Source: Dehalococcoidia bacterium (GTDB taxonomy: Bacteria > Chloroflexota > Dehalococcoidia > JAUQQI01). From it: a stretch of 64,000 nt of DNA. The stretch is from contig DAOTYJ010000115.1 of assembly GCA_034434875.1 (NCBI GenBank), positions 3,213-67,212 on the forward strand, written 5' to 3'. Position 1 is the stretch's first letter. The number at the start of each line of letters is the position of its first letter. The position numbers were made by a program, and so were the translations under genes. The notes under the pieces were generated by a model. That model worked only from the letters and a program-made list of their open reading frames with translations. It had not been told where the DNA came from and made no database searches. Positions 6,791 to 49,117 of the stretch are shown in pieces.

Positions 6791-7977
6791 TGCTTCCCCT
6801 CGAGGGGATCCGGGTCCTGGACCTTTCCCGCCAGCTTCCGGGGCCCTTCTGCACCTGGCTTCTGGCCGACCTGGGGGCGGACGTGGTCCGCATTGAGGAC
6901 CCGGCGGCCGTCGCCCGGGCCCGGGGCTCGGCGGGCGGGTCCGCCCCGGCCGAGGCCGGCTACGACCCCCGCCGGCAGGTCCTTAACCGCAACAAGCGGA
7001 GCCTGATTTTAAACTTAAAGGTCCCGGCCGGGCGGGAGGTCTTCTACCGGCTGGCCGAAAAGGCCGACGTGGTGGTTGAGGGCTTCCGGCCGGGCGTGAC
7101 CCGGCGGCTGGGCATCGACTATGAGACTCTGGCCGGGAAAAACCCCCGGCTGGTTTACTGCTCCCTTTCGGGCTGGGGTCAGACCGGCCCTTACCGGGAG
7201 GTGGCCGGCCACGACGTTAATTACCTGGCGGTGGCCGGGGTCCTGGACCTTACCGGCCCGGCCGACGGGCCGCCGGTGATTCCCGGGGTCCAGGTGGCGG
7301 ACATCGGGGGCGGGGCCCTGATGGCGGCCTTCGGCATCATGGTGGCCCTCTTCCACCGGGAGCGGACGGGCCGGGGCCAGTATATCGACGTGTCGATGTT
7401 GGACGGGGCCGTGGCCTGGCTGGCCCACATCGTCGGCCGGTTTTTAAGCGGGGAGGGCTGGGGGCGGGGCCGGGGCCTGCTGAACGGCGGGGTCCCCTGC
7501 TACAACATCTACCCGACGGCCGACGGCAGGTACCTGGCCGTGGGGGCCCTGGAGCCCTGGTTCTGGGCCAACCTCTGCCGACGGCTCGGCCGGGAAGACC
7601 TGATCCCGAAGCAGTTCGCCGCCGGCCCCGAGGGGGAGGCGGTCCGGGCCGAGCTGGCGGCCATCTTTAAGACCCGGACCCGGGACGAGTGGGCGGCGGA
7701 GCTTATGGGGGCCGACACCTGCGTGGCCCCGGTTAAGGAGCTCTCCGAGGCCCTGGCCGACCCGCAGGTGCAGGCCCGGCAGATGCTCTTGGAGTTCGAA
7801 GACCCCCGCTACGGCCGCGTCCGGCAGGTGGGCTTTCCCATCAAGTTCTCGGCAACCCCGGCCCGGGTCCGGCACCTGGGCGGGCCCCTGGGGGCCGATA
7901 CCGACCCCATTCTGGGGGAGCTGGGCTATTCCGCGGCCGAAATCGAGGGCCTCCGGCGGGCCGGGGCCGTTCAGTAG
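6787..7977 (+). CDS. CaiB/BaiF family class-III CoA-transferase
   Basis: 396 aa; LEGIRVLDLSRQLPGPFCTWLLADLGADVVRIE...VVVEGFRPGV...GHDVNYLA are family hallmarks; GTGA start/stop overlap with the upstream CoxL-like gene. Confidence 0.85.
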   Translation: MMLPLEGIRVLDLSRQLPGPFCTWLLADLGADVVRIEDPAAVARARGSAGGSAPAEAGYDPRRQVLNRNKRSLILNLKVPAGREVFYRLAEKADVVVEGFRPGVTRRLGIDYETLAGKNPRLVYCSLSGWGQTGPYREVAGHDVNYLAVAGVLDLTGPADGPPVIPGVQVADIGGGALMAAFGIMVALFHRERTGRGQYIDVSMLDGAVAWLAHIVGRFLSGEGWGRGRGLLNGGVPCYNIYPTADGRYLAVGALEPWFWANLCRRLGREDLIPKQFAAGPEGEAVRAELAAIFKTRTRDEWAAELMGADTCVAPVKELSEALADPQVQARQMLLEFEDPRYGRVRQVGFPIKFSATPARVRHLGGPLGADTDPILGELGYSAAEIEGLRRAGAVQ

Positions 7978-9368
7978 GCCCCCCGACCCGTGATGACGGC
8001 CGGGACCGTCTGGAGCAGAATCTTTATATCCAGCCAGATGGACCAGTTCTCGATGTAGTAAAGGTCCAGAAGGACCATCTCGTCGAAGGGCAGGTCGCTG
8101 CGGCCCTTCACCTGCCAGAGGCCGGTGAGGCCCGGGGAGACCTCGAGCCGCCGCCGGTGCCAGGGCTCATACAGCTCCCACTCCTCCGGCACCGGGGGGC
8201 GGGGTCCCACCAGGCTCATCTCCCCCCGCAGCACGTTGATGAGCTGGGGGATCTCGTCCAGGCTGAGCCGGCGCAGGATGCGGCCCACCCGGGTTCGGCG
8301 GGGGTCGTTGCGGATTTTAAAGAGGGGCCCGGTGGCCTCGTTAAGGTCTTTAAGCTTTTCTTTCTCCTGCTCGGCCCCCACGTGCATCGACCGGAACTTG
8401 TAGAGGACAAAGGGCCGCCCGTTTTTCCCCACCCGAACCTGCCGGATGAGGGCGGGGCCGGGCGAATCGAGCCGGATCAGGAGGGCGATGAAAAGCCAGA
8501 GGGGCAAAAGGCCCAGAAGGACCAGGCCGGCCACGGCGATGTCGATGGCCCGCTTAACCAGCAGGCTGGTGGGGCTCAGGTTCTGGGGGCTTAAGCTTAC
8601 CAGGGGTATCCCGTCCAGGTCGTCCACGTTCACCCGGCGCAGGCTTATCTCGTAAAGGTCCGGGACGACCCGGAAGTCGAGGCCGGCCCGGCGGCAGCCC
8701 CGAACCAGCTCCATCAGCCGCCCGTGGGAGACGTTGGGCTGGGCGATGATGAACTCGTCGACCTTAAGCTCCCGGGCGACCTTCTCGGCGGCGCTTAGGG
8801 GCCCCAGCCAGCGGAAACGGCCGATGTCGTCGGTCACCTGGTCGTCGAGGAAGCCCAGGAGCCGGTAGCCCCGCCCGCTTCCGGTGGTTAAGGTGTGCAT
8901 CACCAGCTGGGCCAGGGGGCCCGCCCCGATCACCACCGTCTGCCGGACGCCGATTCCCCGCCGCCGGAGAAGGGCCAGAACCCCCCGGCCGCCCAGCCGG
9001 AAGGCGAGGGTGAAGGCGGCCCCGGCCGCCCAGGCGAATACAAAGAGCAGGCGGGAATAGGGGTAGCCGTAGTAAAGAAAGGCGGCCGCCAGCAAGAGCA
9101 TCGACCCCACGCTGGTGGAGGCCACCAGCCTCCCCGCCTCGTCCAGAAGGGAGTCCCGGAAGGGCCGGGCGTAGACCCCGGCGATGCCGTAACCGGCCGT
9201 AAGCAGGGCGGCGAAGGCCAGCTGCAGGGGCACCAGGTCGGCGTAGGGGACAAAGCTGGCCTCCGGCACCTCCCGGCCCAGCTCCAGAACATACCGGCCG
9301 TAGTAGGCCAGGGCGAAGGCCCCGTTAAGCAGGACAAAATCAACCAGGGCGACCCCGAGCCTGAGCAT
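7971..9368 (-). CDS. polyprenyl-phosphate sugar phosphotransferase (WbaP/bacterial sugar transferase family), initiating glycosyltransferase
   Basis: 465 aa; N-terminal TM helices then C-terminal catalytic domain KRAIDIAVAGLVLLGLLPLWLFIALLIRLDSPGPALIRQVRVGKNGRPFVLYKFRSM...DEIPQLINVLRGEMSLVGPRP...LEVSPGLTGLWQV. Confidence 0.85.
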   Translation of the reverse strand: MLRLGVALVDFVLLNGAFALAYYGRYVLELGREVPEASFVPYADLVPLQLAFAALLTAGYGIAGVYARPFRDSLLDEAGRLVASTSVGSMLLLAAAFLYYGYPYSRLLFVFAWAAGAAFTLAFRLGGRGVLALLRRRGIGVRQTVVIGAGPLAQLVMHTLTTGSGRGYRLLGFLDDQVTDDIGRFRWLGPLSAAEKVARELKVDEFIIAQPNVSHGRLMELVRGCRRAGLDFRVVPDLYEISLRRVNVDDLDGIPLVSLSPQNLSPTSLLVKRAIDIAVAGLVLLGLLPLWLFIALLIRLDSPGPALIRQVRVGKNGRPFVLYKFRSMHVGAEQEKEKLKDLNEATGPLFKIRNDPRRTRVGRILRRLSLDEIPQLINVLRGEMSLVGPRPPVPEEWELYEPWHRRRLEVSPGLTGLWQVKGRSDLPFDEMVLLDLYYIENWSIWLDIKILLQTVPAVITGRGAY

Positions 9369-9376
9369 GGTTCCCC

Positions 9377-10387
9377 TCAGGCCGGCAGGATTCCGCCGGC
9401 TTCGCCGAGCTCTTTAAGGGCCCCGACCAGCTCTTCGACCCCCACCGGCACCGCCCCCACCTTCCCCACCACCAGGCCGGCGGCCACCGCCGCGACCCAG
9501 GCCGCCTGGGTCAGGCCGGCCCCGGCCGCCAGGCTCAGGGTGAGGGCGGCGATGGCGGTATCCCCGGCCCCGGTCACGTCCCGGACCTCCCGCCGGCCCA
9601 CGGCCGGGACCACCTCGGGGGCCGCCCCCGGCCGGAAGAGCATCATCCCCTTCTCGCCCATGGTCACCACCAGGTTGGCGCATTTGAGCCGCTCCAGGAG
9701 GGCCTGACCGGCCGCGGCCACCTCCTCGTACCCGGCCAGGCGCCGGCCCAGGACCGCCTCGGCCTCCCGCAGGTTGGGTTTGACCAGCTCGACGCCCTCG
9801 TATTCGAAAAACCGCTCCAGCTTCGGGTCCACCGTCCGGAGCAGGCCCCGCCGGCCGGCCCGGGCCTTCACCTCGGCGATCACCCTGGGGGTGAGCGCCC
9901 CCTTGTTGTAGTCCTCGAAGAGCACCGCGTCGGCCCCGGCCAGGAATGCCTCCAGCCGGCCGAGAAGCGCGTCTTCGACGGCCGGGGGGATGGGGCCGGT
10001 GAACTCCCGGTCGGCCCGGACCACCTGCTGGTTGTGGGCGATGATCCGGGTTTTCAGGGTGGTGGGGCGGTCGGGGTCGGCGACGAGGCCGGCGTCGTCG
10101 ATGCCCTGGCCGGCCAGGGCCTCCCGGAGGAGCCGGGCGGCGTGGTCGCCCCCCACAACCCCCACCAGGAGGGGCTCGGCCCCCAGGGCCTTGATGTTGG
10201 CGGCCACGTTGGCCGCCCCGCCGGGCCGGACCGTCTGGCTCTTTATTTCAACGACCGGGACCGGCGCCTCCGGGGAGATGCGGGTCACCGTCCCCCAGAG
10301 GTACTCGTCGAGCATGACGTCGCCCACCACGACGACCCGCTTGGCCTGCCAGTTTCGGACGATGGCTATGAGCTCGGTTTCGCCCAT
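9377..10387 (-). CDS. hldA: D-glycero-beta-D-manno-heptose-7-phosphate kinase (RfaE domain I, PfkB family)
   Basis: 336 aa; RVVVVGDVMLDEYLWGTVTRISPEAPVPVV...GGAANVAANIKALG...DVTGAGDTAIAALTLSLAAG matches the ribokinase-like heptose kinase domain. Confidence 0.8.
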   Translation of the reverse strand: MGETELIAIVRNWQAKRVVVVGDVMLDEYLWGTVTRISPEAPVPVVEIKSQTVRPGGAANVAANIKALGAEPLLVGVVGGDHAARLLREALAGQGIDDAGLVADPDRPTTLKTRIIAHNQQVVRADREFTGPIPPAVEDALLGRLEAFLAGADAVLFEDYNKGALTPRVIAEVKARAGRRGLLRTVDPKLERFFEYEGVELVKPNLREAEAVLGRRLAGYEEVAAAGQALLERLKCANLVVTMGEKGMMLFRPGAAPEVVPAVGRREVRDVTGAGDTAIAALTLSLAAGAGLTQAAWVAAVAAGLVVGKVGAVPVGVEELVGALKELGEAGGILPA

Positions 10388-10410
10388 AACGGTGACCTTC
10401 TCCCGGAAGT

Positions 10411-11365
10411 TTACCCGAGGCCCTCGACCAGGGCCTGGGCCAGCAGGGGGACCATGAGCTCGTGGTGGCCGGTGAGGTGGATCCCCCGGCCCCCCTGGAG
10501 GGTGGGCCGCCGCAGGACGTTCTCCGACGGCCGGTAATGCCGCAGCATGTCTAAATTTACCGTGGTAAAATTCTCCACCCGGTGTCCCAGGTTGCGGGCC
10601 AGGTTGAGGGCCTTAAGAAAGACCTCGGGCAGAACGACGGCCGAGCCGACGTTGAGATAAACGCCCCCTTCCAGCCGGGCCACCAGGCCCGCAAACCGGA
10701 GAAAATCCTCGAAGCTGGCGGCCCCCAGGGCGTCGCCCCGGGCCGCCGGGTGCATGTGGATGATGTCGGCCCCGATGGTGACGTGGAGGGTGGCGGGGAT
10801 GCCCCGCCGGTAAGCCTGGGCCAGCAGGCTTATATCCGCGTTGGGCAGGTTTGACTCCAGAATCCGCCGGCCCACCACCTCCCCCCAGCCGGCCCCGGTG
10901 GCCATCGCCTCGACGGCGCACTCGTTGAGAAAGCGGCCCGTCTCCTCGGCCATCCCGAAGGTGCCGTCGGCCAGGCCCGCGGCCACATCCTCGGAGGTCT
11001 GGCCGACGAGGGCCAGCTCGAAGTCGTGGATGGCCCCGGCCCCGTTCAGGGCCAGCCCGCCCACGTAGCCGGCGTCCATCAGGCCGATGATGACCGGGTT
11101 CAGACCGACCTTAACCACGTGGGCGCCCAGGCCCCAGAGGACCGGCCGGCCCGCCGCCCGGGCCGCCCGGATGGCCCCCACCACCGCCCGCAGGTCCTCG
11201 GCCGCCAGAATCCGGGGCAGGCGGCCGAAAAACTCCCGGAAGGAGCTTCCCGGCTGCGGCGGCCCGGCCAGGGCCTCCCGGGCCACCTTGCTGGGCCGGG
11301 CCTGGAGGGGAACGGTCCGGGCCCGGCGGTGGTCCAGGCGGGGAAATTCAGGCTTCTCCGTCGGC
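10411..11365 (-). CDS. conserved hypothetical protein, tentatively deoxyhypusine-synthase-like (DHS-like NAD-binding fold); start uncertain
   Basis: Only the C-terminal ~315 aa of ORF 10411-11640 look proteinaceous ([71 protein letters not shown]...[13 protein letters not shown]...); family assignment from memory is weak; sits between hldA and gmhA. Confidence 0.4.
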
Positions 11366-11935
11366 AAGCTCCGCCTCCACCAGGTCGCAGAGGATGTGGC
11401 CCAGGGTGATGTGGCACTCCTGGATGCGGGCCGTGTCCTCCGAAGGGACCACCAGGGCCAGGTCGACCAGACCGGCCAGCCGGCCCCCGTCCCGGCCGGC
11501 CAGCCCGACGGTCTTGAGGCCCAGGGCCCGGGCGGCCTCCACCGCCCGGAGGACATTGGGGCTTCGGCCGCTGGTGCTGATGGCGACGAGGACATCCCCC
11601 GGCCGGCCGAGGGCCTCCACCTGCCGGCTGAAAACCTCATCGAAGCCGAAGTCGTTGCCGATGGCGGTAAGGGCCGAGGTATCGGCCGTCAGGGCGAGGG
11701 CAGCCAGCCCCGGCCGGTTCCGCCGGTAGCGGCCGACCAGCTCCGCCGCCAGGTGCTGGCTGTCGGCGGCGCTGCCGCCGTTGCCGCAGAACAGCACCTT
11801 GTTTCCCCCCTTAAGGGCCTCGGCCACCAGCCGGGCGGCGGCCGCCAGCCTTTCGGCAAGGTTTTCGGCCAGCCAGAGCTTGAGCCGGGCCGATTCGGCC
11901 AGCTGGGCCCGGACGGCGGCCGCCGGGTCGGTCAC
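11348..11935 (-). CDS. gmhA: D-sedoheptulose-7-phosphate isomerase (SIS domain)
   Basis: C-terminal 195 aa of ORF 11348-12673: [49 protein letters not shown]...[38 protein letters not shown]...[15 protein letters not shown]; probable GTG start at 11935 after GGGAGGGG; the rest of the 441-aa ORF is GC-driven extension. Confidence 0.85.
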
Positions 11936-13161
11936 GTCCCCCTCCCGGACCCCACCCCGGCCGGCCGGCCCAGAAGCTCCGCCGCCGCCTCCACCACCCG
12001 CCGGACGGGGATCAGGGTTAGGCAGTAGTTTTCGATGTGCCGGCAGTGGACGTGGTCGCACGGCCGGCAGGGCAGGTCGATTTCTAAAAGCCGGTATTCG
12101 GTGCCGTAAGGGTGGTACTTGGCCGGCTCCGAGGGCCCGAAGAAGGTCACCACCGGGACCCCGGCCGCGGCCGCAAAGTGCATCGGGGCGCTGTCGTTGC
12201 CGATGAAAAGGTCCACCTCCCGGAGCAGGGCGGCCGTCTGGCGCAGGCTCAGCCGGCCCACAAAGTTGGCCACCGGCCCGTCGTAATCCCGGGTGAACCG
12301 GGCGGCCAGGTTTGCCTCCTCGGGGCCGCCCACCAGGTAAACGACCATCCCCGGGTAGAGGCGGCGGAGGGCCCGGACCGCGGCCGCCAACTTGCCCACC
12401 GGCAGGCACTTGGTGGCGAAGCCGGCCCCCAGGTGGACGGCCACCCGGGGGTTCCCGCCGGCCTCGGCCGCAAGCTTCTGGCCGAACCCGACCTCTTCGG
12501 GCCGGAGGGGGAGCTGGGGCCCCCCTTCCGCCGGCCGGACCCCGAGCTGGCCCACCACCGCCTGCCCGAAGTCCACCCGGTGGACGGGCCGGTCGGGGCC
12601 GAGGCTTACGTGGAGCCAGGAGCCGCCGCCCCGGGCGTCGCTGCCGACCCGAAGCTTGGGCCCCAAAAGCCACGTAAAAAAGATATCCCGGGGGTCCCCC
12701 CGGAGCTCCACGGCGGCGTCGAAGGCCTCCCGCCGCAGGCGGCGGACGGCCCCCAAAAGTTCAAGGGCGGCATTCGCCCAGCTCAGCCGCTCCCCCCGCC
12801 AGGCCCGGTGCCAGGGGACCTTCACGGCCCAGATGCGGTCGACGGCCGGGTGGCCTTCCAGGAGGGCCGCCCCGGCCGGGTCGGTCACCAGGTGGATTTC
12901 GGCGGCGGGGAAGCGGCGGCGAAGGGCCCGGATGGCCGGCTCCGAAAGGAGGACGTCCCCGATGGAGTCCAGCCGGACGACGGCGATTTTGAGCCCCCGG
13001 CCGTCCCCGGTGGCGAGCCGGGTAAAGACCTCCTTCCAGGCCCGGTCCCGGCCGGTCCACCGGTCGTGGAGGCCGATGAGCCGGGCGATGGGGCCTTCCA
13101 GGCGGCCGATGACCCGGCTTTTGACCTTTCGGTCGAGGCCCATCATCCCCTGATTATACAC
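11932..13161 (-). CDS. glycosyltransferase family 9 (ADP-heptose:acceptor heptosyltransferase-like)
   Basis: 409 aa; [35 protein letters not shown]...[41 protein letters not shown]...[28 protein letters not shown] is the RfaF/WaaC GT9 signature. Confidence 0.8.
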
Positions 13162-13182
13162 CGGGCGCCGGGACCCCCGGCC

Positions 13183-14301
13183 TTAAGGCCGGCGGGCGAG
13201 GATGAGCCGCCGGTAGAACTCCCGGGTCTGGTCGGCCACGGCCCGGTGGGAAAAACGGCCCACGGCCTGCCGGCGGCCCAGCTCCCCGAGGATGCGCCGG
13301 AGGGTCGGGTCCAGCATCAGCCGCCGAATCGCCCCCCGCAGGCCCAGCACATCCCCCTCCGCCACCACAATCCCCCCGTCGCCCAGGGTCCGGGGGACCT
13401 CCCCCGAGTCGCTGCCCACCACCGGAACCCCGCAGGCCTGGGCCTCGACGATGACCCGCCCGAACTGCTCCTTCCACCGCCGGCCCGTCAGGGAAGGCAC
13501 CACCAGGACGTCGACGGACCGGTAAAACTCGGGCATCTCCGTCGAGGCGAAGGGTCCCAGGAGCCGCCACCGGCCGCCCAGCCCCCGGAGCCTGGCCTCC
13601 ACCTGCCGGCGGACGGCCGGGTCGGACCCGAAGCCCCCGACGATGAGGAGCTCCCAGTCGCCTTCCAGGCCGGCCACCGCATCCAGCAGCCAGTGGGCCC
13701 CCTTCTCGGGCACCAGCCGGCCGACAAAGCCGATGCGGAACGGCCCGGTCCGGGGGCGGGGTTCCGGCCGGAAGAGCTCCGGGTCCACCCCGAACTGGGG
13801 GACCACCGCCACTGGCCCGGTAAACCCCCGCCGGCGCAGGAGCAGCTCGGCCTCCCGGTTGCCGGCGATGGCCCCGGCGGCCCCGGCGAAGACGGCCCGC
13901 TGGAACCAGGAGAAGGGGGGCGGGATGGGGTTCGGCATGTTCTGCCAGGTGAAGAAAAGACCGAGGGCCCCGGCCCGGCGGGCCAGCCGCAGGCCGTGAA
14001 AGGTCACCAGGTCGTAAGGCTCCTCGTCCAGGTGGACCAGGTCCGGCTTAAATTCGGCCAGAACCCGGCCCAGGCCCGGGTAGTAATGAAGGTGGACCCG
14101 GCCGTTAAAGCGGGGGGGCAGGATATACACCCGGTAGCCCTCGTCGTTTCCGGGCTCGAAGGGGGCGACCTCCTTGCCGAACCGCCAGAACGGGGGGACC
14201 ACCAGGCCGAGCTCGATATCCCCGCCGGCCGCCAGGGCCCGCAGCTTCTTCCGGTATTCGGCCACGTAGCAGGCCTTGGAAACCATCAGGACCCGGATCA
14301 T
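13183..14301 (-). CDS. glycosyltransferase family 4
   Basis: ORF 13183-14448 trimmed to ATG at 14301 (MIRVLMVSKACYVAEYRKKL...); C-terminal GT4 motif region FVGRLVPEKGAHWLLDAV...VVPSLTGRRWKEQFGRVIVEAQACGVPVVGSDSGEVP. Confidence 0.8.
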   Translation of the reverse strand: MIRVLMVSKACYVAEYRKKLRALAAGGDIELGLVVPPFWRFGKEVAPFEPGNDEGYRVYILPPRFNGRVHLHYYPGLGRVLAEFKPDLVHLDEEPYDLVTFHGLRLARRAGALGLFFTWQNMPNPIPPPFSWFQRAVFAGAAGAIAGNREAELLLRRRGFTGPVAVVPQFGVDPELFRPEPRPRTGPFRIGFVGRLVPEKGAHWLLDAVAGLEGDWELLIVGGFGSDPAVRRQVEARLRGLGGRWRLLGPFASTEMPEFYRSVDVLVVPSLTGRRWKEQFGRVIVEAQACGVPVVGSDSGEVPRTLGDGGIVVAEGDVLGLRGAIRRLMLDPTLRRILGELGRRQAVGRFSHRAVADQTREFYRRLILARRP

Positions 14302-15071
14302 GGGCCTTTCGGACGCTCGGCCGAAACGTGCATTACCACCGCCGCCAGGGGCACCCGGCCCAGGAGGGTCGACTCCAGGTGGGCCAGAACCCAGAGGACC
14401 CGGACGAAAAACCGAAAAAGAAGGTTGCGCCGGAGCCGCCCGGCCCACCCTTCCCGCTCCACATAAAACAAAAAGTCTTTAAGCTGGCCCACCGGGTGCA
14501 TGCTGTAGCGCACATCCTGGACCCGAAAGCCGGCCCCGGCCAAAAGCCTTAAGATGTCGGCGTGGGTGAACCGCTGGATGTGCCCCCCGTGGCGCTCCTT
14601 CAGGTCGGCCCCGACCCCCAGCTTGGCGGCCAGCCAGTAGAGGGTGAGGGGCTGGCCCTCGCAGGGCACCAGCAGGTGGAACCGGCCCCCCGGCCGCAGA
14701 ACCCGGTAGGCCTCGGCCAGGGCCGCCTCCGGCCGGGGCAGGTGCTCCAAAACGTCCACCATCAGCACGAAGTCGAAGCCGGCGTCCCGGTAGGGGAGCC
14801 GGTGGGCGTCGGCCAGGACGTATTCGGCCGCCTCCGGGAAGGCCCTTCCGGCCTTAAGGCTGACCAGGGAGAGGTCGCAGCCGAAAAGCTCCCAGCCGGG
14901 CCTTCGGCGGCCGATGGTCCGCAGGAACCGTCCGGCCCCGCAGCCCACCTCCAGCATCCGGCCCGGTCCCGGGGGCACCCAGGCCAGGGCCCGCCGGAGG
15001 GCGATGTTTAAGGGGTGGACATAACCGCCGCCCCAGACCTGGTCGAGCCGAGTGCGCGTAAATAGACCCAA
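14298..15071 (-). CDS. class I SAM-dependent methyltransferase (Methyltransf_11-like)
   Basis: 257 aa; SAM-binding motif RMLEVGCGAGRFL and motif II DFVLMVDVLEHLP; ATGA overlap with the downstream GT4 gene; 5' end overlaps the upstream GT4 gene by ~60 nt, so the true start may lie further in. Confidence 0.75.
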   Translation of the reverse strand: MGLFTRTRLDQVWGGGYVHPLNIALRRALAWVPPGPGRMLEVGCGAGRFLRTIGRRRPGWELFGCDLSLVSLKAGRAFPEAAEYVLADAHRLPYRDAGFDFVLMVDVLEHLPRPEAALAEAYRVLRPGGRFHLLVPCEGQPLTLYWLAAKLGVGADLKERHGGHIQRFTHADILRLLAGAGFRVQDVRYSMHPVGQLKDFLFYVEREGWAGRLRRNLLFRFFVRVLWVLAHLESTLLGRVPLAAVVMHVSAERPKGP

Positions 15072-19656: not shown

Positions 19657-19661
19657 GGGTT

Positions 19662-23528: not shown

Positions 23529-25168
23529 GGGTTTCGGCGGGGCAGGAAGGTGACCCCCAGGCCCAAAAAGCTGAGGGCGGCCAGGCCGGCCCCGAGCAGG
23601 GCCGGCCGGTAGTCGGGCTCCTCCAGGAGAACGACAAAGGCGTCGATGGTCACCCTTTCGTCGGGCCGGAGCTGGGGCACCGTCAGGGTGAGGCGGTGCT
23701 GGCCGTAGGGCAGGCCCCGGGCCACCGGGACGGGCCGGCCGGAGAGGTCCACCCAGGTCTGGCCGGTGGGGTCGGCCGGCAGGCCCGGGACCGGGTGGCC
23801 GTCCAGCTGAAGATAGACCCGGCCGTTCCGGGGCCCGGGCACCAGCTCAACCCCGGTTCCCCGGAAGGTAAAAACTAACCGGGCCCCGGGGGCCGAAGAT
23901 TCCACGTAGCCCCGGGCGGAGGCCTCGTCGGAGCGCAGGTAGGCCCAGCGGCCCTCGGTCTGAACGGCCGGGGAGGTCTCCTGGTGTTCGCCCGGCAGGG
24001 CGACCTTAAACTCCTCGGAGAGCTGCTGGACGGCAAAGTAAAGGGGGCGGGGGGTGAAATCGGGGTCCACGACCCGGAAGTAATACTCGGCGCTGTCAAG
24101 GGGGGAGATGTCCCCCACCTGCCGGAAGTACCAGAGGTTGATCACCCCCAGCCACTCCCACTGGCGGGCCAGGCGGACGGCCCGGACGGTGTAGGCGGCC
24201 TGCTCCTCCTCGGTCACCCGCCCCCAGTAAAGGCGGAAAGGGGGAAAAGTTGGGGGGGCGGCATTCCAGCCGAACTCGTTAAGCCAGATGGGCTTGGCCC
24301 CGTCGCCGTTGCGAACCATCACCTCCCGCAGAAGTTTAAGCCGCTGGAAGTTCAAAACCCTCGGGTCGGGGGGGTCTTCCGGGGGCCGGTCGAAGCCGTA
24401 GGCGTTGGCCATCAGGATGTCGAAATAGGGGGCGGCCCCGGCGGCGTACATGCCCTGAAGGAACTCCAGCTCGTTTATCGCCTGGGGCGACCGCTCCAGG
24501 GTCTGGGCCAGGGGGGCGCTTAAGATAACCGCGTTGGGGTCCACGGCCTTGGCCCGCTGGTAGGCGACCTTTAAAAGCTCGGTGTAGGCCACGGGGTCGG
24601 GGGGGCGGCCGCCCCATTCCCGGGCCAGGTTCGGCTCGTTCCAGACCTGGTAATACTGGACCCGGCCCCGGTAGCGGGCGACCACCCGGGCCACGTAGTC
24701 GCCGAACTCGTTAAGGTCCCGGACCGGGTAGCGGGCATTCTCAGCCCGGCTGCGGGCCCATTCCGGGGGCTGGTCGAGCCTGACGATGAGGCGCAGGCCA
24801 TACTGCTCCACCAGGTCGACGATTTCGTCGAACTTGTCCCAGGTGCTCCGCCGGATGCGGTCGTCCCAGAAGAGGCCCTGCTGGGGCTCGATCTGGTCCC
24901 AGGGGAACATCTGCTTGACCCAGCCCAGCCCGGCCGCCCGGGCCATCCGGAGGGTCTCCCGCTTCTTCCAGGTCTCCACCTCCCGGTCCAGGAAAAAGTT
25001 TGCCCCGAGGGGGTTCACGTCGGTGAAGGGCAGGGGCCGGGCCTGGGCCTGGATCGGGGGGACCGGGTTTAAAATTGGGTTCGGAAGCCACCAGGTGAGG
25101 CCCAGCCCCACCACCAGGCCGAGGAGAAAGAGCACCCGGGCGGTTCGGCGTCCCATGGCCGACCCCAA
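23525..25168 (-). CDS. membrane-anchored clan GH-A glycoside hydrolase (GH5/GH39-like)
   Basis: 547 aa; signal/TM at N-terminus, catalytic motifs YYQVWNEPN (acid/base) and IWLNEFGW (nucleophile), C-terminal TM anchor LLGAGLAALSFLGLGVTFL. Confidence 0.65.
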   Translation of the reverse strand: MGSAMGRRTARVLFLLGLVVGLGLTWWLPNPILNPVPPIQAQARPLPFTDVNPLGANFFLDREVETWKKRETLRMARAAGLGWVKQMFPWDQIEPQQGLFWDDRIRRSTWDKFDEIVDLVEQYGLRLIVRLDQPPEWARSRAENARYPVRDLNEFGDYVARVVARYRGRVQYYQVWNEPNLAREWGGRPPDPVAYTELLKVAYQRAKAVDPNAVILSAPLAQTLERSPQAINELEFLQGMYAAGAAPYFDILMANAYGFDRPPEDPPDPRVLNFQRLKLLREVMVRNGDGAKPIWLNEFGWNAAPPTFPPFRLYWGRVTEEEQAAYTVRAVRLARQWEWLGVINLWYFRQVGDISPLDSAEYYFRVVDPDFTPRPLYFAVQQLSEEFKVALPGEHQETSPAVQTEGRWAYLRSDEASARGYVESSAPGARLVFTFRGTGVELVPGPRNGRVYLQLDGHPVPGLPADPTGQTWVDLSGRPVPVARGLPYGQHRLTLTVPQLRPDERVTIDAFVVLLEEPDYRPALLGAGLAALSFLGLGVTFLPRRNP

Positions 25169-25172
25169 TATA

Positions 25173-25934
25173 TCAGGGCGGGGCGGATTCCTTCAAACGG
25201 ACGGCCGGCCTCTTAAAAGGAATTCCCGGCCGGCGGGGAAAGGCCTCCGGGGTCGGGGCCCTTTTCTCCAGGACGATAAAGACCCGCTCCAGGCCGTACT
25301 CCCGGCCGAAGGGGCCGAAGGTGCCGGCCGGCTCGGCCCCCAGCCGCCGGATGAAGGGGAGGGTCGGGGGAAGGTCGGGCAGATCCGGGGGGCCTTTCCA
25401 GTAGACGGCCCGGCCGCCCGGGGCCACCAGGGGCAGGGTCACTTCCACCAGGGTGGGGAGGCGGGCCAGGGCCCGGGCCGCCACCAGGGTCGCCCCCTCC
25501 CGGTAGGCCCGGTCCCGGCCCACATCCTCGGCCCGCCTCGGGATCAGCCTTACCCGGTCCAGGCCCAGCCGGCCCACCAGCTCGTTTAAAAACCTTACCC
25601 GCTTAAGGCTCGACTCGATGAGCCACAGCTCGACTTCGGGGAAGACCAGGCGGATGGGCACCCCGGGGAAGCCGGCGCCCGTGCCCACGTCGGCCAGGAC
25701 GGTCCCGGCCCGGAGCATCCCTTTAAGGCCCGGGATCTCAAGGCAGAGGAGGGAATCGATGAAGTGGCGGGTTTCCACTCCGGCCGGGTCGGTGACGGCC
25801 GTCAGGTTTACCCGGCGGTTCCAGTCAAGAAGAAGTCGGCGGTACTCCTCGAAAGCCGCAAGCAGGTCGTCCGTCGGCCCCAGGCCGTGGTCGGCAAGAA
25901 ACCGGCGTAGCCGGTCCAGGCCCCATTCAGCCAA
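25173..25934 (-). CDS. rsmG: RsmG/GidB-family SAM-dependent methyltransferase (16S rRNA m7G527 methyltransferase-like) embedded in the glycan operon
   Basis: 253 aa; LLLDWNRRVNLTAVTDPAGVETRHFIDSL...LADVGTGAGFPGVPIRLVFPEVELWLIESSLKRVRFLNELVGRLGL...VAARALARLPTLVEVTLPLVAPGG follows the RsmG fold closely. Confidence 0.8.
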   Translation of the reverse strand: MAEWGLDRLRRFLADHGLGPTDDLLAAFEEYRRLLLDWNRRVNLTAVTDPAGVETRHFIDSLLCLEIPGLKGMLRAGTVLADVGTGAGFPGVPIRLVFPEVELWLIESSLKRVRFLNELVGRLGLDRVRLIPRRAEDVGRDRAYREGATLVAARALARLPTLVEVTLPLVAPGGRAVYWKGPPDLPDLPPTLPFIRRLGAEPAGTFGPFGREYGLERVFIVLEKRAPTPEAFPRRPGIPFKRPAVRLKESAPP

Positions 25935-27273
25935 GGTCCTGCTGGATCAGCCGGCTCGCCTGGTAGCCCAGCCGGACGCTGTAGTTCTGGCCCCGGTCTT
26001 CGGGGTAGATCTGGGTGGTGTTGGCCAGGTAGAGGCGGCGGATGGGGGTTCTCAGGGGCGGCATCCGTCCCCGGTAGTTGGCCGTGATGACCGGCTGGGC
26101 GGCATCCTCCCGGTGGTGGTGGAGCTCCTCGACCCAGGCCGGGTCGAATCGGGGGTTTATCCGGCGCAGGTGGGGCAGGTAAACCCGGAAAAGCTCCGGG
26201 CCCGAAAGCCTTAAAAGGGGGTGGTCCCGGGCCAGGTAATTGGCGATATAAACGATATGCTTGCCCCCGTATTCCTCCGGGGGGAGCAGGTTCGTCTGCT
26301 CGATGACCCCGACGAAGGGCACCGAACGGTCGGCGATATTGAGCCAGTAGACCGGGCTCAGCCGCTCCTTGAGGACCAGCACCAGGCAGACGGCCGCCTG
26401 GTAGCGGATGGCCCGGATGAGGTCGGCGTAGGGGGCGGGCAGTTCGGGCACAAGGCGGAGAAAGACCCAACCGGGGACGGTGGCCAAGACGGCGTCGAAG
26501 GCCCATTCGGTGGGGATCTCCACCGCCCTGCCCCCCCACTCGACGGCCCGGCCGTGGGCCAGGCGGACCCCCCGGGCCTCCCCGTCGGCGGTGAGGACCC
26601 CCTCCACCTGGGCGCCGACGAAGACCCGGCCGCCCCGGGCGGTGATGGCGTCCCCGAGGGCCCGGTAAACCCGGCCGAAGCTTCCCCGCAGGTAGCCCAA
26701 AAGCTCCTTCTGCATGCCCCGGTCCCGGGAGGCGAAGCGCAGGTGGATTTTGCCCCAGAGCCAGGCCATCCCCACCTCCTCGGCCAAGTCGCCAAATTTG
26801 CCCCGCAGGAGGGGTCCCCAGACGGTCTCGTAGTTGCGCCGGCCGGCCCACTTGATAAGCCAGTCCCGGGCGGTTAGCTTTTCGAACCTGGCCCAGTTGG
26901 ACTCGTAGCGTAAATAGAGGCTGGTAAGGCCCAGGCGGATGCGGTCGACGACGCTTACGGGCTTAAAGCGGAGCAGGTCTAGGGGGGTTACGAAGTTGTA
27001 AACCTGGCCTTCCCAGAAGAAACCGACGGTGGACGGCAGCCAGAGCAGGTCCTTTCCCAGACCCAGCTCGCCGATAAGGTCGATGAAATAAACGTCCCCC
27101 CGGAAAAGGTGATGATAAAACCTTTCGACCTCGGTGCCGCCGACGGTGAAGGTGCTCACCTGGCCCCCGAGCCAGGGGGCCCGCTCGAAGACGACAACCC
27201 CGTGGCCGGCCTTAACCAGGTCCCAGGCGGCGGCCAGCCCCGCCGCCCCGCCCCCGATGATTCCGACCCGCAT
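25927..27273 (-). CDS. FAD/NAD(P)-binding oxidoreductase (amine-oxidase / phytoene-desaturase superfamily)
   Basis: 448 aa; N-terminal dinucleotide-binding MRVGIIGGGAAGLAAAWDLVKAGHGVVVFERAPWLGGQ and C-terminal FAD motif YLANTTQIYPEDRGQNYSV. Confidence 0.7.
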   Translation of the reverse strand: MRVGIIGGGAAGLAAAWDLVKAGHGVVVFERAPWLGGQVSTFTVGGTEVERFYHHLFRGDVYFIDLIGELGLGKDLLWLPSTVGFFWEGQVYNFVTPLDLLRFKPVSVVDRIRLGLTSLYLRYESNWARFEKLTARDWLIKWAGRRNYETVWGPLLRGKFGDLAEEVGMAWLWGKIHLRFASRDRGMQKELLGYLRGSFGRVYRALGDAITARGGRVFVGAQVEGVLTADGEARGVRLAHGRAVEWGGRAVEIPTEWAFDAVLATVPGWVFLRLVPELPAPYADLIRAIRYQAAVCLVLVLKERLSPVYWLNIADRSVPFVGVIEQTNLLPPEEYGGKHIVYIANYLARDHPLLRLSGPELFRVYLPHLRRINPRFDPAWVEELHHHREDAAQPVITANYRGRMPPLRTPIRRLYLANTTQIYPEDRGQNYSVRLGYQASRLIQQDLG

Positions 27274-28275
27274 TTAATCCGTCCCCCTATCCGCCGGCCC
27301 GGACGGGCCGGCCTCCGGGAGGAGCAGCGCCCCGTACCATCCTAACCAGATTATGCCCGCCACCGTCACCGGAAGCCAGAGCACCAGGTGGACCAGCAGG
27401 CCGAAGGCGGCGGCTTCGGGACCGGCCCCCAGGGCGGCGGCCGCCTCCCGGACCGCCAGGTCGAAGCTCCCGGCCCCGCCGGGGGCCAGGGGAAGGGCCC
27501 AGGCCAGGTTGCCCACCGAGGCCACCACCAGGTATTCCGAGGGGCCCAGGCCGAGGCCCAGGGCCCGACCGACGCAGAAAAACACTCCCGCCTCGACGGC
27601 CCAGCTGGCCAGGGTAAGCAGCCCCGAGGCCCCCAGAACGTCGGGCCGGCCCAGCCCCATAAGGCCCCGCCGGACCTGCCCGATAACCCGCCGGAGGCCC
27701 CGGGGCCCTTCGGGGGCGAATTTCAAAGTTGCCCAGGCCAAAATCAGGGTCCCCAGGAAGACCCCCGCCCCCACCAGGCCGGCCAGAAATCCCCAACCCG
27801 GGAACCGGGTCAGGCCGAGGCCCAAAAAGAGCAGGCCCACCAGGCTCAGGCCGTCCAGTACCCGCTCGGCCAGGGCCGTAGCCCCGACGGTGGGCCAGGG
27901 GAGGCGGTGGCGGAGGCTTAAAAGGGTGATGCGGGCCAGGTCCCCGGCCCGCCCGGGAATCAGGTTGTTGAGGGCGTAGCCGGCCAGGGTGAGGCCGAAG
28001 AGCTCCGGACGGCCCGGTCGGGCGACCTGCCCGAGCAGCAACTGCCAGCGCCAGGCCCGGAGCCAGGGGGCGACAAAATAGAGGCCGGCCCCGGCCGCCA
28101 CCCACCTGGGGTCCCCTTCCCGCCAGACGGCCCAGACCGACGCCGGGTCGGACCGGGCCACCACCAGGCCCAGGAGGCCGAGGCCCAGGACGGTGCCGGC
28201 CCAGTTCCACCAGGCGGTCCGCCGCCGGGCAACCTTAAGGACGGCCCTCACCCGGCCGACCGGGGCCATCCCCAC
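27274..28275 (-). CDS. UPF0104 / LPG-synthase-TM (flippase-like) membrane protein, first gene of the glycan operon
   Basis: 333 aa polytopic; LIPGRAGDLARITLLS...APGGAGSFDLAV pattern of the flippase-like domain; immediately abuts the downstream FAD oxidoreductase gene (0-nt spacer). Confidence 0.6.
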   Translation of the reverse strand: MGMAPVGRVRAVLKVARRRTAWWNWAGTVLGLGLLGLVVARSDPASVWAVWREGDPRWVAAGAGLYFVAPWLRAWRWQLLLGQVARPGRPELFGLTLAGYALNNLIPGRAGDLARITLLSLRHRLPWPTVGATALAERVLDGLSLVGLLFLGLGLTRFPGWGFLAGLVGAGVFLGTLILAWATLKFAPEGPRGLRRVIGQVRRGLMGLGRPDVLGASGLLTLASWAVEAGVFFCVGRALGLGLGPSEYLVVASVGNLAWALPLAPGGAGSFDLAVREAAAALGAGPEAAAFGLLVHLVLWLPVTVAGIIWLGWYGALLLPEAGPSGPADRGTD

Positions 28276-28330
28276 CCCCCCAGTTCCCCGGCCGGGACTT
28301 TGCGAAAAGGGTTTATCAAATGATGGTGGC

Positions 28331-28384
28331 TTGCAAATCGGCCCACGTCGTTGCCATTATACCCATAGGGAAGGGCCGTGTCCA
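28331..28384. promoter_or_regulatory. overlapping divergent sigma-A-like promoters sharing one AT-rich hexamer
   Basis: Minus strand: TGGACA (28379-28384 rc) - 17 nt - TATAAT (28356-28361 rc), ~75 nt upstream of the glycan operon start. Plus strand: TTGCAA (28331-28336) - 18/19 nt - CATTAT/ATTATA (28355-28361), upstream of the 28378 GTG. This is the only AT-rich patch in an otherwise ~70% GC region. Confidence 0.4.
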
Positions 28385-28740
28385 GGTACGTCCGAACGTC
28401 CGTAGACCCGAGGCTTTTTGACCGGCTGGTCCGGCGGGCCATCCGGCGGCTGCCCCCCGAGTTTCGGGCGGCGCTGGAAAACGTGGCCGTCATCGTCGAG
28501 GAGGAGCCCGCGGGTTCGGAGGAGCTTTTCGGTCAGTATTTCGGGCACCCGCTGCCGGCCCGGGCCGGGGCGGAGCCCCTCCTGCCCGACCGCATCGTCC
28601 TTTACCGGGGCCCCCTGGTTCGGGCCTGCGGGGGCGACCGGGGGCTGTTGGCCTTGGAGGTCGAGCGGACCATCCTCCACGAGGTCGGCCACCTGCTGGG
28701 CCTGGACGAGGACCGGCTGGCGGAGTTGGGGCTCCGGTGA
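28378..28740 (+). CDS. small zincin-like metallopeptidase-family protein (HExxH)
   Basis: 120 aa; C-terminal LEVERTILHEVGHLLGLDED is a zinc-binding HExxH helix as in the Zincin_1/DUF1025 'metallopeptidase family protein'. Confidence 0.55.
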   Translation: MSRYVRTSVDPRLFDRLVRRAIRRLPPEFRAALENVAVIVEEEPAGSEELFGQYFGHPLPARAGAEPLLPDRIVLYRGPLVRACGGDRGLLALEVERTILHEVGHLLGLDEDRLAELGLR

Positions 28741-29528
28741 GGCGGCAGGCCGCCCCCGTAACCTTCCGGCCCTGGCGTCGGGCAAGGCGGCTCAGCCTCG
28801 GCCGCCTCATGGGCCTTACGGCCCTGGCCGTGGGCGGGCTGGGGGCCCTGACGGCGGTGCCGGCCGAATACTTCTGGCCGGCGGCCGCCGGGCTGGTCGG
28901 GGCGGCTTCGCTGGGGTCGATCCGGTTTAACCCCTTCGGCCGGGGGCTTACGCCGGTGGGAATTCTGCCCGGCCTTACGGTCCTCATCCTGGCGGTGGGG
29001 CTGTTCATCCTCCGGGGAAGCCCCTGGGCCTGGGGGGTGGTCGGGGCGGGGCTGGGGCTTTTTCCCCTGGGGCTGGTGCTGGAGGGCCGGGCCCATTTCG
29101 AGCCGGCCGTATCCCCCTTCCGCCTCGGGTACGGACTGCTGGTTTACCTGCTGGGCCTCGCCCTTTTTACCGCCATCTTCGGCACCCGGGAGCGCAGCCT
29201 GTTTACGGCCACGGGAGTCGGGGCGGTAAGCACCCTGCTCTGGGCGGCCCTGCGGGCGGGCCACCAGCCGGCGGGCCGAAGCGGCTGGGTTTACTACCTG
29301 TTGGTCTTTCTGGTCATGGGGGAGCTTACCTGGGCCCTGAATTACTGGCCCATCGGGACCGTGGCCGGGGGCGGAACCCTCATGCTCGCCTTCTTTGCCG
29401 TAACCCAGCTGGCCGGCGCCCACCTGACCCATACCCTCGACCGGCGGCAGGGGCTGGAGCTGGCCCTGGTGGTCGGGGTTCTGCTGGTTATGCTCTGGAC
29501 GGCCGGTGTAAGCCTGGGCGGTGGGTAA
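28737..29528 (+). CDS. polytopic membrane protein, unknown function
   Basis: 263 aa, 7-8 predicted TM helices; GTGA overlap with the upstream zincin-like gene and 8-nt overlap with downstream hldC, so translationally coupled. Confidence 0.5.
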
Positions 29529-30030
29529 GGTCCTTTCCCGACGGGAGCTGGGCCCGGTGGTCGAAGGCCTCCGGGCGGCCGGCAAGAGGCTGGTCTTTAC
29601 CAACGGGGTGTTCGACCTCCTTCACCCCGGCCACGTCCGCTACCTGGCCGCCGCCCGGGCCCTGGGGGATGTGCTCATCGTCGGCCTCAACTCCGACGCC
29701 TCGGTCCGGCGGCTGAAGGGGCCGGACCGGCCCATTCAGGACCAGGCGGCCCGGGCCGAGGTGCTGGCGGCCCTGGCGGCGGTGGACTTTGTGGTCATCT
29801 TCGACGAGGATACGGCCGCCGAACTGGTCGGCCTTATCCGTCCGGACGTCTACGTCAAGGGGGGCGACTACGCCGGGGTGGGGGCCGACCGCTGGCCGGA
29901 GGCCGAGGTGGTCCGGGCCTACGGGGGGGAGGTCCGGACGGTGGGGTTTGCGCCCGGCCATTCGACGTCGGAAATCATCCGCAAAATCGCCGAACGGTAC
30001 GGCCGATGCGCATCGCCACCGCCAGCCTGA
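29521..30030 (+). CDS. hldC: D-glycero-beta-D-manno-heptose-1-phosphate adenylyltransferase (RfaE domain II, cytidylyltransferase fold)
   Basis: 169 aa; [45 protein letters not shown]...[21 protein letters not shown]...VKGGDY is the nucleotidyltransferase signature (HxGH). Confidence 0.8.
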
Positions 30031-31556
30031 TCCTGATGGCCGGGTCTTTGGGCTCCCGGGTCCTGGGCCTGGTCCGGGAGCAGCTCATCGCCGCCCTCTA
30101 CGGCCGCACCCGGGAGACCGACCTTTTCACCGCCGCCGCCCGGGTCCCCACCACCCTCCACGACCTGCTGGTCGGGGGGGTGGTGACGGCCGCCCTGGTC
30201 CCCGTCATAACCAACTACCTGGCCGAGAACCCGAAGGAGGCCGGGCGGCTCATCGGAACCCTCCTTATCCTGGTGACGGCCCTTCTCGCCCTGGTGACGG
30301 CCCTCCTCTGGCTGCTGGCCATGCCCCTGGCCGAACTTATCCTGCCCGGTTACGGCCCCGGGGACCGGCGGCTGGCCGGTGACCTGCTGCGGCTGATGGC
30401 CCCGGTGCTGCCCTGCCTTTCCCTGGGGGGCGTTCTGGCCGGGGTGAGCCTGGCCCGGCGGCGGTTTCTCTTTCCGGGTTTTGGGGCGGCCGTCCTCAAC
30501 CTGGTCTTCGGGCTGAGCGCGGCCTTTTTTCGCCCCCTCGGGGTGGGGGCCCTGGCCCTGAGCTTTACGGCCGGGGCCCTGGCCCACCTCCTCTGGCAGG
30601 CCGGGGGCCTCAAGGGCCTCCGGGTAGGGCTGGAGTTCGACCCGGCCCATCCCGGGCTGCGGCAGGTGGGCCGCCTCTACGTCCCCGTTTTCCTGGGCCT
30701 TTTGGTTTCGACGGCCGGGGTCGCCTTCGACACCTACCTGGCCTCCTTTACGGGCCCGGGGGACCTGACGGCGATGCGGTTTGCCACCAACATCATCCAG
30801 TTCGCCATCGGCCTCGTCGGGGGTTCCATCGGCCTGGCCGCCCTGCCCACCCTCACCCGTCAGGCCGCCGACGCCACCCGGTCCGGGTACGAGGCGACCC
30901 TCACGGCCATGGTCCGGTGGGTCTGGCTGCTCACCTGGGGGCTGGCCGTGGTGATGCTGGTTTTGCGCCGGCCCCTGGTGAGCCTGCTCTTTGAGCGGGG
31001 CCAGTTCGGTCCGGGGGACACCGACCGGACGGCCCTGGCCCTGCTGGCCTACCTGCCGGGCCTGCCGGCGGCGGCCCTGGACCAGCAGCTCATCTACGCC
31101 TTTTACGCCCGGCAGAACACCCTGACCCCGGTGGCGGTGGGGGTTTTTGCGGTCCTCTTATATGCCGTAACGGCGGTGGCCCTGCTCGGTCCCCTGGGCA
31201 TGCCCGGCCTAGCCCTGGCCAACGCGGTGCAGTGGGTATCCCACGCCGTGGTGATGGTTTGGGTCGGCCGGTCCCTGCTGGGCCGGAGCCTGCGGCCCCT
31301 GGGGGATGCGGCGGGGCGGGGGCTGGTGGCGGGGGCGGCGGCCGCCGCCGCGGCCGCCGTCGGCGCCGGGGCGGTCCCCCCCGGACTGCCCCGGGGACTG
31401 GCCGTAAACCTGTGGCAGGTGGCGGTCGGGGGCGGGGCCGGACTGGCCGCCTACTGGGGTGTGCTTTACCTGCTCCGGACTCCCGAGGCCGGCCTTCTCA
31501 TGGGCCGGGTTTTGGGTCTGCTTAAGGGAATCCGCGTGGTAAAATCTACCGAGTAA
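30006..31556 (+). CDS. murJ: MurJ/MviN family lipid-linked oligosaccharide flippase
   Basis: 516 aa, 14 TM; N-terminal [61 protein letters not shown] is the conserved MurJ start. Confidence 0.85.
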
Positions 31557-38975: not shown

Positions 38976-41579
<2,604 letters not shown>

Positions 41580-47826: not shown

Positions 47827-49101
<1,275 letters not shown>

Positions 49102-49117
49102 CTGGGGGTGTTCGGCG

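Follow-up and report, generated by a model that had tools for sequence, protein, structure and literature searches.

We analyzed a 64-kb stretch of DNA with ~69% GC ("the window" below always means this whole stretch) from contig DAOTYJ010000115.1 of an uncultured member of the Dehalococcoidia (assembly GCA_034434875.1), in which a long run of co-directional genes probably encodes the assembly of an envelope glycan. Minus-strand genes continue unbroken over 7971 to 28275 and each has a clear coding signature, with a third-position GC content of 0.82 to 0.93 making the coding frames of the array easy to tell. An earlier note, made from the sequence alone, had described this array together with an opposing operon of four to six genes, and both were borne out: the divergent plus-strand set begins at 28378 and holds 4 genes up to 31556 and 6 up to 33553. 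The 19 co-directional genes of that note become 18 on our count between 28275 and 7971, and its statement that gaps measure 25 nt or less is true of the longest open reading frames (ORFs), which overlap or leave ~25 nt at most, but not of a second set of gene calls from a public metagenome contig identical to the window DNA (ENA ERZ27245891 k141_9400), where two gaps reach 39 and 50 nt. The genes at the center of this study, in which GT stands for glycosyltransferase and GH for glycoside hydrolase, are the following.

7971-9368, minus: WbaP/WcaJ-like large polyprenyl-phosphate hexose-1-phosphate transferase (PGT), initiating; Bac_transf (225 bits) and CoA_binding_3
9377-10387, minus: HldA, heptose-7-phosphate kinase; TIGR02198, 354 against a cutoff of 345; PfkB domain
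10411-11367, minus: GSU2086-family protein, associated with heptose modules; NF052581, 417 against a cutoff of 250
11348-11935, minus: GmhA, sedoheptulose-7-phosphate isomerase; TIGR00441, 229 against a cutoff of 209; SIS_2 domain
11932-13161, minus: GT9, heptosyltransferase-family glycosyltransferase; PF01075, 95 bits against a cutoff of 22
13183-14448, minus: GT4 c (probable start 14301, 372 aa, from the public-contig gene call); Glycos_transf_1 and Glyco_trans_1_4
14298-15071, minus: class I methyltransferase dependent on S-adenosylmethionine (probable start 14957, 219 aa); Methyltransf_11, _23 and _25
15008-16123, minus: GT4 b; Glycos_transf_1 and Glyco_transf_4
16114-17262, minus: GT4 a; Glycos_transf_1 and Glyco_transf_4
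17234-18247, minus: UPF0104/PplT flippase-like membrane protein b (UPF0104b); PF03706, 154 bits; TIGR00374, 117 against a cutoff of 43
18244-19656, minus: Wzy_C paralogue 2, ligase- or polymerase-like; PF04932, 58.6 bits
19662-20621, minus: UXS, UDP-glucuronate decarboxylase (UDP-xylose synthase); 368 bits to human UXS1
20618-21988, minus: Wzy_C paralogue 1, ligase- or polymerase-like; PF04932, 86.8 bits
21933-23528, minus: ArnT-like GT-C fold glycosyltransferase (GT39/PMT_2); PMT_2, 30.9 against a cutoff of 26.1
23525-25168, minus: membrane-anchored clan GH-A glycoside hydrolase-like protein, 547 aa (probable start ATG 25156); weak GH10, GH5 and GH42 Pfam matches
29521-30030, plus: HldC, heptose-1-phosphate adenylyltransferase; TIGR02199, 201 against a cutoff of 181.5

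Profile scores and sequence similarity confirmed all the families that the earlier note had named, namely the WbaP-type PGT, HldA, GmhA, GT9, three GT4 enzymes, the methyltransferase, UXS, two Wzy_C proteins, the ArnT/PMT-type GT-C, the anchored GH-A hydrolase, two UPF0104 proteins, HldC, and MurJ. They also bear out its view of the locus as one for glycan assembly that supplies ADP-heptose and has a GT9 enzyme. Its gene list for the array did not include three further members, RsmG, a PRK07233 FAD oxidoreductase, and the GSU2086-family protein.

The closest relatives of the window lineage are metagenome-assembled genomes (MAGs) of uncultured Chloroflexota (Dehalococcoidia), with no cultured close relative. 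The GT9 enzyme is 83 to 91% identical to proteins of four Chloroflexota/Dehalococcoidia MAGs among GTDB species representatives, the next best match standing at 32%, and ClpB is 92 to 95% identical to proteins of a small clade of uncultured Chloroflexota and then 71% identical to those of other Chloroflexota. On the strength of these relatives we rejected a Firmicute origin, which the gene order of the window had suggested to the earlier reader.

Heptose supply, GT9 and the initiating transferase

The gmhA gene is masked by a longer off-frame ORF; its frame was recovered from the frame-specific profile of third-position GC, and it has a GTG start downstream of a GGGAGG site. Between gmhA and hldA lies the gene of the GSU2086-family protein, which in the window has no Pfam match but belongs to a family of at least 8000 homologues, 55 to 62% identical across phyla, with a fold that resembles deoxyhypusine synthase and the LOR/SDH domain. 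Genes of this family adjoin gmhA, hldA, or hldE in Chloroflexi, Thermodesulfobacteriota, and Geobacter (comparison loci L082, L084, L170, L171, and the Geobacter locus). Transposon insertions scored during growth of Geobacter on electrodes gave similar log2 fitness values, -3.2 for the GSU2086-family gene and, for the genes on either side of it, -3.7 (gmhA) and -3.1 (hldE) (PMC5585712). The protein may be an unrecognized enzyme of heptose metabolism. We considered and rejected a role as a substitute for the phosphatase GmhB, since the GSU2086 gene occurs in the same modules as HAD-family genes in L170 and L171 and its product has a deoxyhypusine-synthase-like fold. The minimal core of a distant Chloroflexi MAG has, in addition, a conserved 67-aa ORF that separates GT9 from gmhA (L082:9199-9402, L083:1284-1487) and is absent from the window.

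The GT9 enzyme scored below all of the LPS (lipopolysaccharide) heptosyltransferase equivalogs (I, 88 against 185; II, 70 against 135; III, 123 against 170), heptosyltransferase III being its top NCBIfam match, and its best PDB matches were 3tov, WaaF, and WaaC. Its orthologues share 44 to 47% identity in other Chloroflexota and at most 32% outside the phylum. GT9 repeatedly adjoins a PGT gene, and the arrays of multiple GT9 genes typical of core loci were found only among relatives with ~30% identity. Two further ideas about this enzyme were set aside: a TibC-type autotransporter heptosyltransferase was unsupported, as only 3tov, WaaF, and WaaC matched at E <= 0.01, and a cysteine cluster at the C terminus is no special feature, the CxxC...C...C arrangement being general among GT9 relatives. 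Downstream of the best GT9 relative outside Chloroflexota (32%; L006:10001-13330, a Halanaerobiales MAG) we observed a GT4 gene and then a UPF0104 gene, so that such adjacency is not confined to Chloroflexota.

The PGT has five hydrophobic segments and matches TIGR03025 at 446 against a cutoff of 296, while staying below the cutoffs of the WcaJ and WbaP equivalogs. Its gene adjoins GT9 or heptose genes in L082, L089, L170, and L171.

The GT4/Wzy_C block and the hydrolase pair

The genes of the three GT4 enzymes and the methyltransferase keep their order in three distantly related loci (L089, L092, and L166), with the methyltransferase gene between GT4 genes and GT4 c in its position in each. 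The identification of UXS rests on its similarity to human UXS1 (4gll, 2b69; 368 bits over residues 2 to 312), compared with 174 bits for the best epimerase, the next class; by these scores we rejected assignments of this short-chain dehydrogenase/reductase (SDR) as HldD or as a dTDP-glucose dehydratase. Orthologues of UXS, 60 to 61% identical, are flanked by both Wzy_C genes in L089 and L092, and L166 has a gene of the Epimerase/GDP_Man_Dehyd family, unscored against UXS, at the same position.

The two Wzy_C paralogues share 32% identity over 206 residues, and each belongs to a conserved orthologue group of its own. In orthologues of paralogue 1 (39 to 44% identity) the motifs TYSRGAW, GVGLDNF, and SHPHN-x9-G are invariant, and in those of paralogue 2 (36 to 37%) SxSR, GVGxGNF, and HAHN-x9-G. 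Both groups keep the motifs SR(G/A)AW, GVGxxNF, and H-x-HN-x9-G, which we take to be those of WaaL/PglL-type ligases and which do not split polymerase from ligase. A PglL_A match occurs in paralogue 2 only, at 21.7 bits, under the cutoff of 25, and this paralogue weakly matches the exosortase-associated O-glycosylation ligase family. Sequence searches of the PDB returned no solved-structure match for either protein.

The AlphaFold2 model of the GT-C enzyme (pLDDT 94) has ArnT as its top fold match (5ezm/5f15, TM 0.61, E = 3e-8), ahead of PglB, STT3, and AglB. D31-E32 in its first extracytoplasmic loop are invariant across 42 homologues, and among ~65 homologue clusters all that carry a source name are from Chloroflexota. 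One homologue with 40% identity (L167:10001-11623; GCA_040961035.1, a Chloroflexota MAG) lies between the genes of the ATP synthase gamma and beta subunits, with a UPF0104 gene and a class A penicillin-binding protein gene just downstream. Next to the GT-C gene, that of the hydrolase encodes a bitopic protein with one hydrophobic segment at the N terminus and one at the C terminus. Its PDB matches are weak (5jvk, GH39, GH10) and a specific GH family assignment is not possible; WNEPN (E178) and LNEFGWN (E298), which correspond to the acid/base glutamate (NEP motif) and the strand 7 nucleophile glutamate of clan GH-A retaining enzymes, are invariant in four orthologues of 52 to 54% identity. In L164, L165, L166, and L168 the gene of the hydrolase overlaps or abuts that of the GT-C, with shared bases or no gap. 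This arrangement invites comparison with ArnT/Gtr-type three-component periplasmic glycosylation, with which the locus has in common a GT-C model nearest to ArnT and a flippase-like membrane protein in the block; the window block differs in having no GT2 polyprenyl-phosphate sugar synthase, the GT-C gene overlapping or abutting a clan-A hydrolase gene instead.

Flippase candidates

The array holds two UPF0104 proteins, both of which match LPG_synthase_TM. UPF0104b has eight hydrophobic segments, and its position is kept in L089, L092, and L166. The family corresponds to the flippase domain of MprF, and its members have been described as fused to GT-A and GT-B enzymes (also in Chloroflexi), to O-antigen ligases, and to AglD, an archaeal S-layer glycosylation enzyme. 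The scanned ORFs of the window include no Wzx-type flippase (Polysacc_synt), and the sole MOP protein there is MurJ, which scores above the cutoff of the TIGR01695 equivalog (280 against 236). The MurJ-family flippase of the earlier note stands as a family call; a dedicated role in glycan export is not supported, MurJ being more simply the lipid II flippase. With no Wzx in the block and MurJ scoring as the housekeeping protein, we infer that UPF0104b is the best candidate for flipping a lipid-linked glycan.

Conservation of gene order and limits of the unit

In close relatives (L002-L005 and L085-L087) the gene order is identical to that of the window, including the flanking CoA-transferase and molybdo-hydroxylase genes. 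More distant loci of other Chloroflexota, L089 (60% GC) and L092 (68% GC), have genes for Wzy_C, UXS, Wzy_C, UPF0104, GT4, GT4, methyltransferase, GT4, and GT9 in the same order at 35 to 61% identity, with PGT directly after GT9 in L089 and the C-terminal part of a GT-C upstream in L092. The earlier note had singled out two Wzy_C proteins, a GT-C enzyme, and a methyltransferase as a set, and conservation at such identities bears this out. The MAG GCA_016183425.1 carries both halves of the window locus, at separate places: L166 consists of hydrolase, GT-C, Wzy_C, UXS, Wzy_C, UPF0104, GT4, GT4, methyltransferase, and GT4, and L082 of GT9, the 67-aa ORF, GmhA, GSU2086, HldA, and PGT, the latter core adjoining a CoA-transferase gene, as it does in the window. 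Two more Chloroflexi MAGs (L170 and L171) have GT9, GSU2086, a HAD gene or HAD-PfkB fusion, HldA, and PGT, with further glycosyltransferases after this core module in L170. A core of heptose and PGT genes with GT9 is therefore present in three lineages beyond the clade of the window (L082, L170, and L171). As GT9 is joined in some lineages to the heptose/PGT core and in others to the GT4/Wzy_C block, it links the two halves into one pathway.

The upstream end of the array is occupied by a promoter match and by genes of a different kind, the pair of the last line including the first UPF0104 gene of the array (UPF0104a).

25167-25196, minus: sigma-70-like promoter match, TTGAAG-18-TATATT with a TG extension
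25173-25934, minus: RsmG, 16S rRNA methyltransferase, housekeeping; TIGR00138, 129 against a cutoff of 99.5
25927-27273, minus: PRK07233 FAD oxidoreductase; PRK07233, 486 bits against a cutoff of 252
25927-28275, minus: FAD oxidoreductase gene and UPF0104a, which it abuts with no gap

Conservation of the glycan block does not extend to RsmG, the FAD oxidoreductase (for which PDB searches gave no informative relative), or UPF0104a, and the functional unit is for this reason the 15-gene block at 7971-25168, with hldC encoded separately, rather than the whole ~23-kb array that the earlier note had taken as one locus. The promoter match, which overlaps the rsmG stop codon and lies ~10 nt ahead of the hydrolase ATG at 25156, agrees with the block boundary found by synteny. 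It is the sole match in 7500-27400, but this is weak evidence, because 0.6 matches are expected there by chance. At this position it would give a near-leaderless hydrolase transcript. The housekeeping gene rsmG itself lies within the co-directional array. A scan for terminators gave matches only within coding sequence, and these were set aside.

Proposed pathway

We propose, with moderate confidence, that the genes at 7971-25168 together with hldC (29521-30030) form a conserved assembly line for an envelope glycan in an uncultured lineage of Chloroflexota (Dehalococcoidia); its product would most likely be an undecaprenyl-diphosphate-linked surface glycan with heptose and, probably, xylose. 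Three things were observed directly: the enzyme families, the order and linkage of the genes, and the restriction of close relatives to the phylum. The chemistry is our interpretation of them, every function being read from families and synteny in an uncultured organism. The parts are familiar; their combination is uncharacterized so far.

In the cytoplasm, ADP-D,D-heptose would be made and UXS would provide UDP-xylose. The WbaP-like PGT would put a hexose-1-phosphate on undecaprenyl phosphate, a UppS gene being present in the same window, and GT9 would add heptose to this lipid-linked primer rather than to lipid A-Kdo. Three GT4 enzymes, one of them possibly using UDP-xylose, would extend the chain, and the methyltransferase would O-methylate a sugar. 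The lipid-linked oligosaccharide would then be flipped, with the UPF0104/PplT protein as the best candidate and, failing that, the housekeeping MurJ. Once the chain is outside the membrane, both Wzy_C paralogues would act on it and are predicted to be nonredundant, one probably polymerizing the chain and the other probably ligating it to an acceptor, which could be protein, cell wall, or lipid. The ArnT-like GT-C may add a sugar taken from a polyprenyl-monophosphate donor, and the membrane-anchored GH-A hydrolase may trim or release the polymer.

Several results weigh against this pathway or leave steps of it unfilled. The scanned ORFs of the 64-kb window include no HAD gene that could encode GmhB, the HAD-family heptose-1,7-bisphosphate 7-phosphatase; given the HAD genes or fusions in the related modules L170 and L171, gmhB is presumably encoded elsewhere in the genome of the window organism. 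HldD, the ADP-heptose 6-epimerase, was not found in the window either, and the sole SDR of the block reaches 81 bits on TIGR02197, whose cutoff is 275; as this protein is UXS, D,D-heptose is the expected product, unless an epimerase is encoded elsewhere. Among the scanned window ORFs there is no UDP-glucose dehydrogenase to supply UDP-glucuronate, and neither the block nor any of L166, L089, and L092 contains a GT2 polyprenyl-phosphate sugar synthase to partner the GT-C. L089 and L092 have no heptose genes next to the block, and in L164, L165, and L168 the hydrolase and GT-C genes form a solitary pair, which indicates that sub-modules can function separately. No acceptor gene (S-layer protein, LCP, sortase substrate) is encoded nearby. 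What GT9 takes as donor and acceptor, whether UDP-xylose is used, which protein is the flippase, and what each Wzy_C paralogue does are predictions from sequence.

Alternative explanations

The most familiar setting for these genes would be the LPS core and O-antigen (waa/rfb) cluster of a diderm, in which GT9 heptosylates lipid A-Kdo and one Wzy_C protein is WaaL. In GT9, GmhA, HldA, and HldC the locus has the classical inner-core genes, the three supply enzymes match at equivalog level as in LPS inner-core heptosylation (GmhA, HldE or HldA/HldC, GmhB, HldD, WaaC/WaaF/WaaQ), the best matches of GT9 are heptosyltransferase III in NCBIfam and WaaF and WaaC in the PDB, and the Wzy_C motifs are WaaL-like. 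We nonetheless regard this explanation as highly improbable, since GT9 remains under every LPS heptosyltransferase cutoff and is repeatedly found beside a PGT, and multi-GT9 arrays appear only in its ~30%-identical relatives. The locus also differs from LPS inner-core heptosylation in that the window has no GmhB or HldD and that a GSU2086-family protein belongs to the module. The scanned ORFs of the 64-kb window contain no lpx, kds, waaA, lpt, or msbA genes, in agreement with the earlier observation that LPS core genes are missing here. The relatives of the window are Chloroflexota, and comparative genomics has described Chloroflexi as devoid of LPS, with an outer-membrane gene pattern as in monoderm Terrabacteria (PMC8871954). 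Our literature search found no published link between Chloroflexota and ADP-heptose or heptosyltransferases. Chance juxtaposition of independent modules (heptose genes with GT9 and PGT, the GT4/Wzy_C/UXS block, and the hydrolase and GT-C pair) would account for the separate loci in GCA_016183425.1, for the solitary hydrolase and GT-C pairs, for the GT-C homologue within an ATP synthase operon, and for RsmG embedded in the array. It is quite unlikely in our view, as GT9 sits on the GT4/Wzy_C block in L089 and L092 and on the heptose/PGT core in L082, L170, and L171, both halves occur in one MAG (GCA_016183425.1), and the GT4/Wzy_C block has no initiating transferase of its own.

Two further explanations, both sub-cases of the proposed assembly line, concern the fate of the glycan. 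Protein (S-layer) O-glycosylation, with one Wzy_C as a PglL/WsaB-type O-oligosaccharyltransferase and the other as the polymerase, was the reading favored by the earlier note; taken by itself, we find it rather unlikely. The combination of PGT and Wzy_C resembles slg and pgl clusters, cultured Dehalococcoidia possess S-layers, and paralogue 2 has weak similarity to PglL_A and to the exosortase-associated ligases; but the PglL_A score is below threshold, both paralogues share the same ligase-type motifs and neither matches any solved structure by sequence, and no S-layer, SLH, or other target gene was found in the window, L166, L089, or L092. Wzy-dependent O-antigen and S-layer clusters (Salmonella rfb with WbaP; Geobacillus slg with WsaP and WsaB) share with the window a large WbaP-type PGT that primes undecaprenyl phosphate, extension by cytoplasmic GT-B enzymes, an in-cluster sugar-nucleotide gene, and Wzy_C-family proteins for the steps outside the membrane. 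The window block, in contrast, has neither Wzx (Polysacc_synt) nor Wzz and has a conserved UPF0104/PplT protein, two Wzy_C proteins that both carry ligase-type motifs, an ArnT-like GT-C, a clan-A hydrolase, and a Chloroflexota host. The S-layer heptoglycan of Aneurinibacillus thermoaerophilus is a heptose-containing surface glycan of a bacterium without LPS; compared with its pathway, the window locus encodes an ADP-beta-heptose route and GT9. The other explanation is a secreted or loosely attached exopolysaccharide like Psl of Pseudomonas, with no dedicated acceptor and with a hydrolase that controls chain release as PslG does. A WbaP-like PGT and a membrane-anchored clan-A hydrolase in one polysaccharide operon recall PslA and the GH39-like PslG, and the hydrolase of the window weakly matches GH39/GH10 xylosidases and xylanases. 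We consider such an exopolysaccharide unlikely, because no Wzz/PCP, Wza, or tyrosine kinase genes were found among the scanned ORFs of the window, because two conserved ligase-like Wzy_C proteins, a GT-C, GT9 with heptose genes, and UPF0104 are not features of Psl, and because a gene order kept over deep divergence suggests a fixed envelope component, not a variable exopolysaccharide.

A more far-reaching combination of the above, which we put forward tentatively and consider less likely than not, is that a subset of Chloroflexota, a phylum without LPS, makes a conserved heptose envelope glycan; that GT9 would have an undecaprenyl-diphosphate-linked primer, instead of lipid A-Kdo, as its acceptor; that UPF0104/PplT and not Wzx would flip the product; that two specialized ligase-like Wzy_C proteins and the ArnT-like GT-C/hydrolase pair would finish and attach it; and that the GSU2086-family protein may be an unrecognized nucleotide-heptose enzyme across many phyla.

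Other genes of the window

The divergent set comprises, in order, Zincin_1, DUF5656, HldC, and MurJ (ending at 31556), TerC, and a 420-aa protein (ending at 33553) for which a family match was not found. The small Zincin_1 metallopeptidase-like gene and the gene of the DUF5656 membrane protein (28378-29528, plus) lie ahead of hldC and murJ. Directly downstream of clpB (38976-41579) we found a release-factor-like gene of baeRF family 10 (acVLRF1), of the bacterial archaeo-eukaryotic type (37824-38945, minus). An rpsB-tsf-pyrH-frr-uppS cluster lies at 47029-50415 (plus), in a gene order that is widespread among bacteria; its UppS would be the source of the undecaprenyl carrier that a glycan pathway would need.

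Implications

The locus is unusual in three respects, namely the phylum in which it is found, the linkage of GT9 to a PGT, and a UPF0104 protein where Wzx is expected. There is still debate over how the envelope of Chloroflexota is built, and next to nothing is known of the polymers at its surface. A conserved heptose-based assembly line would be a concrete target for envelope chemistry, and the locus is a natural test case for the flipping of polyprenyl-linked glycans by UPF0104/PplT proteins. If our proposal is true, GT9 and ADP-heptose chemistry reaches beyond LPS. ADP-heptose is an innate-immune agonist, and its presence in LPS-free environmental phyla would be of interest for innate immunity.

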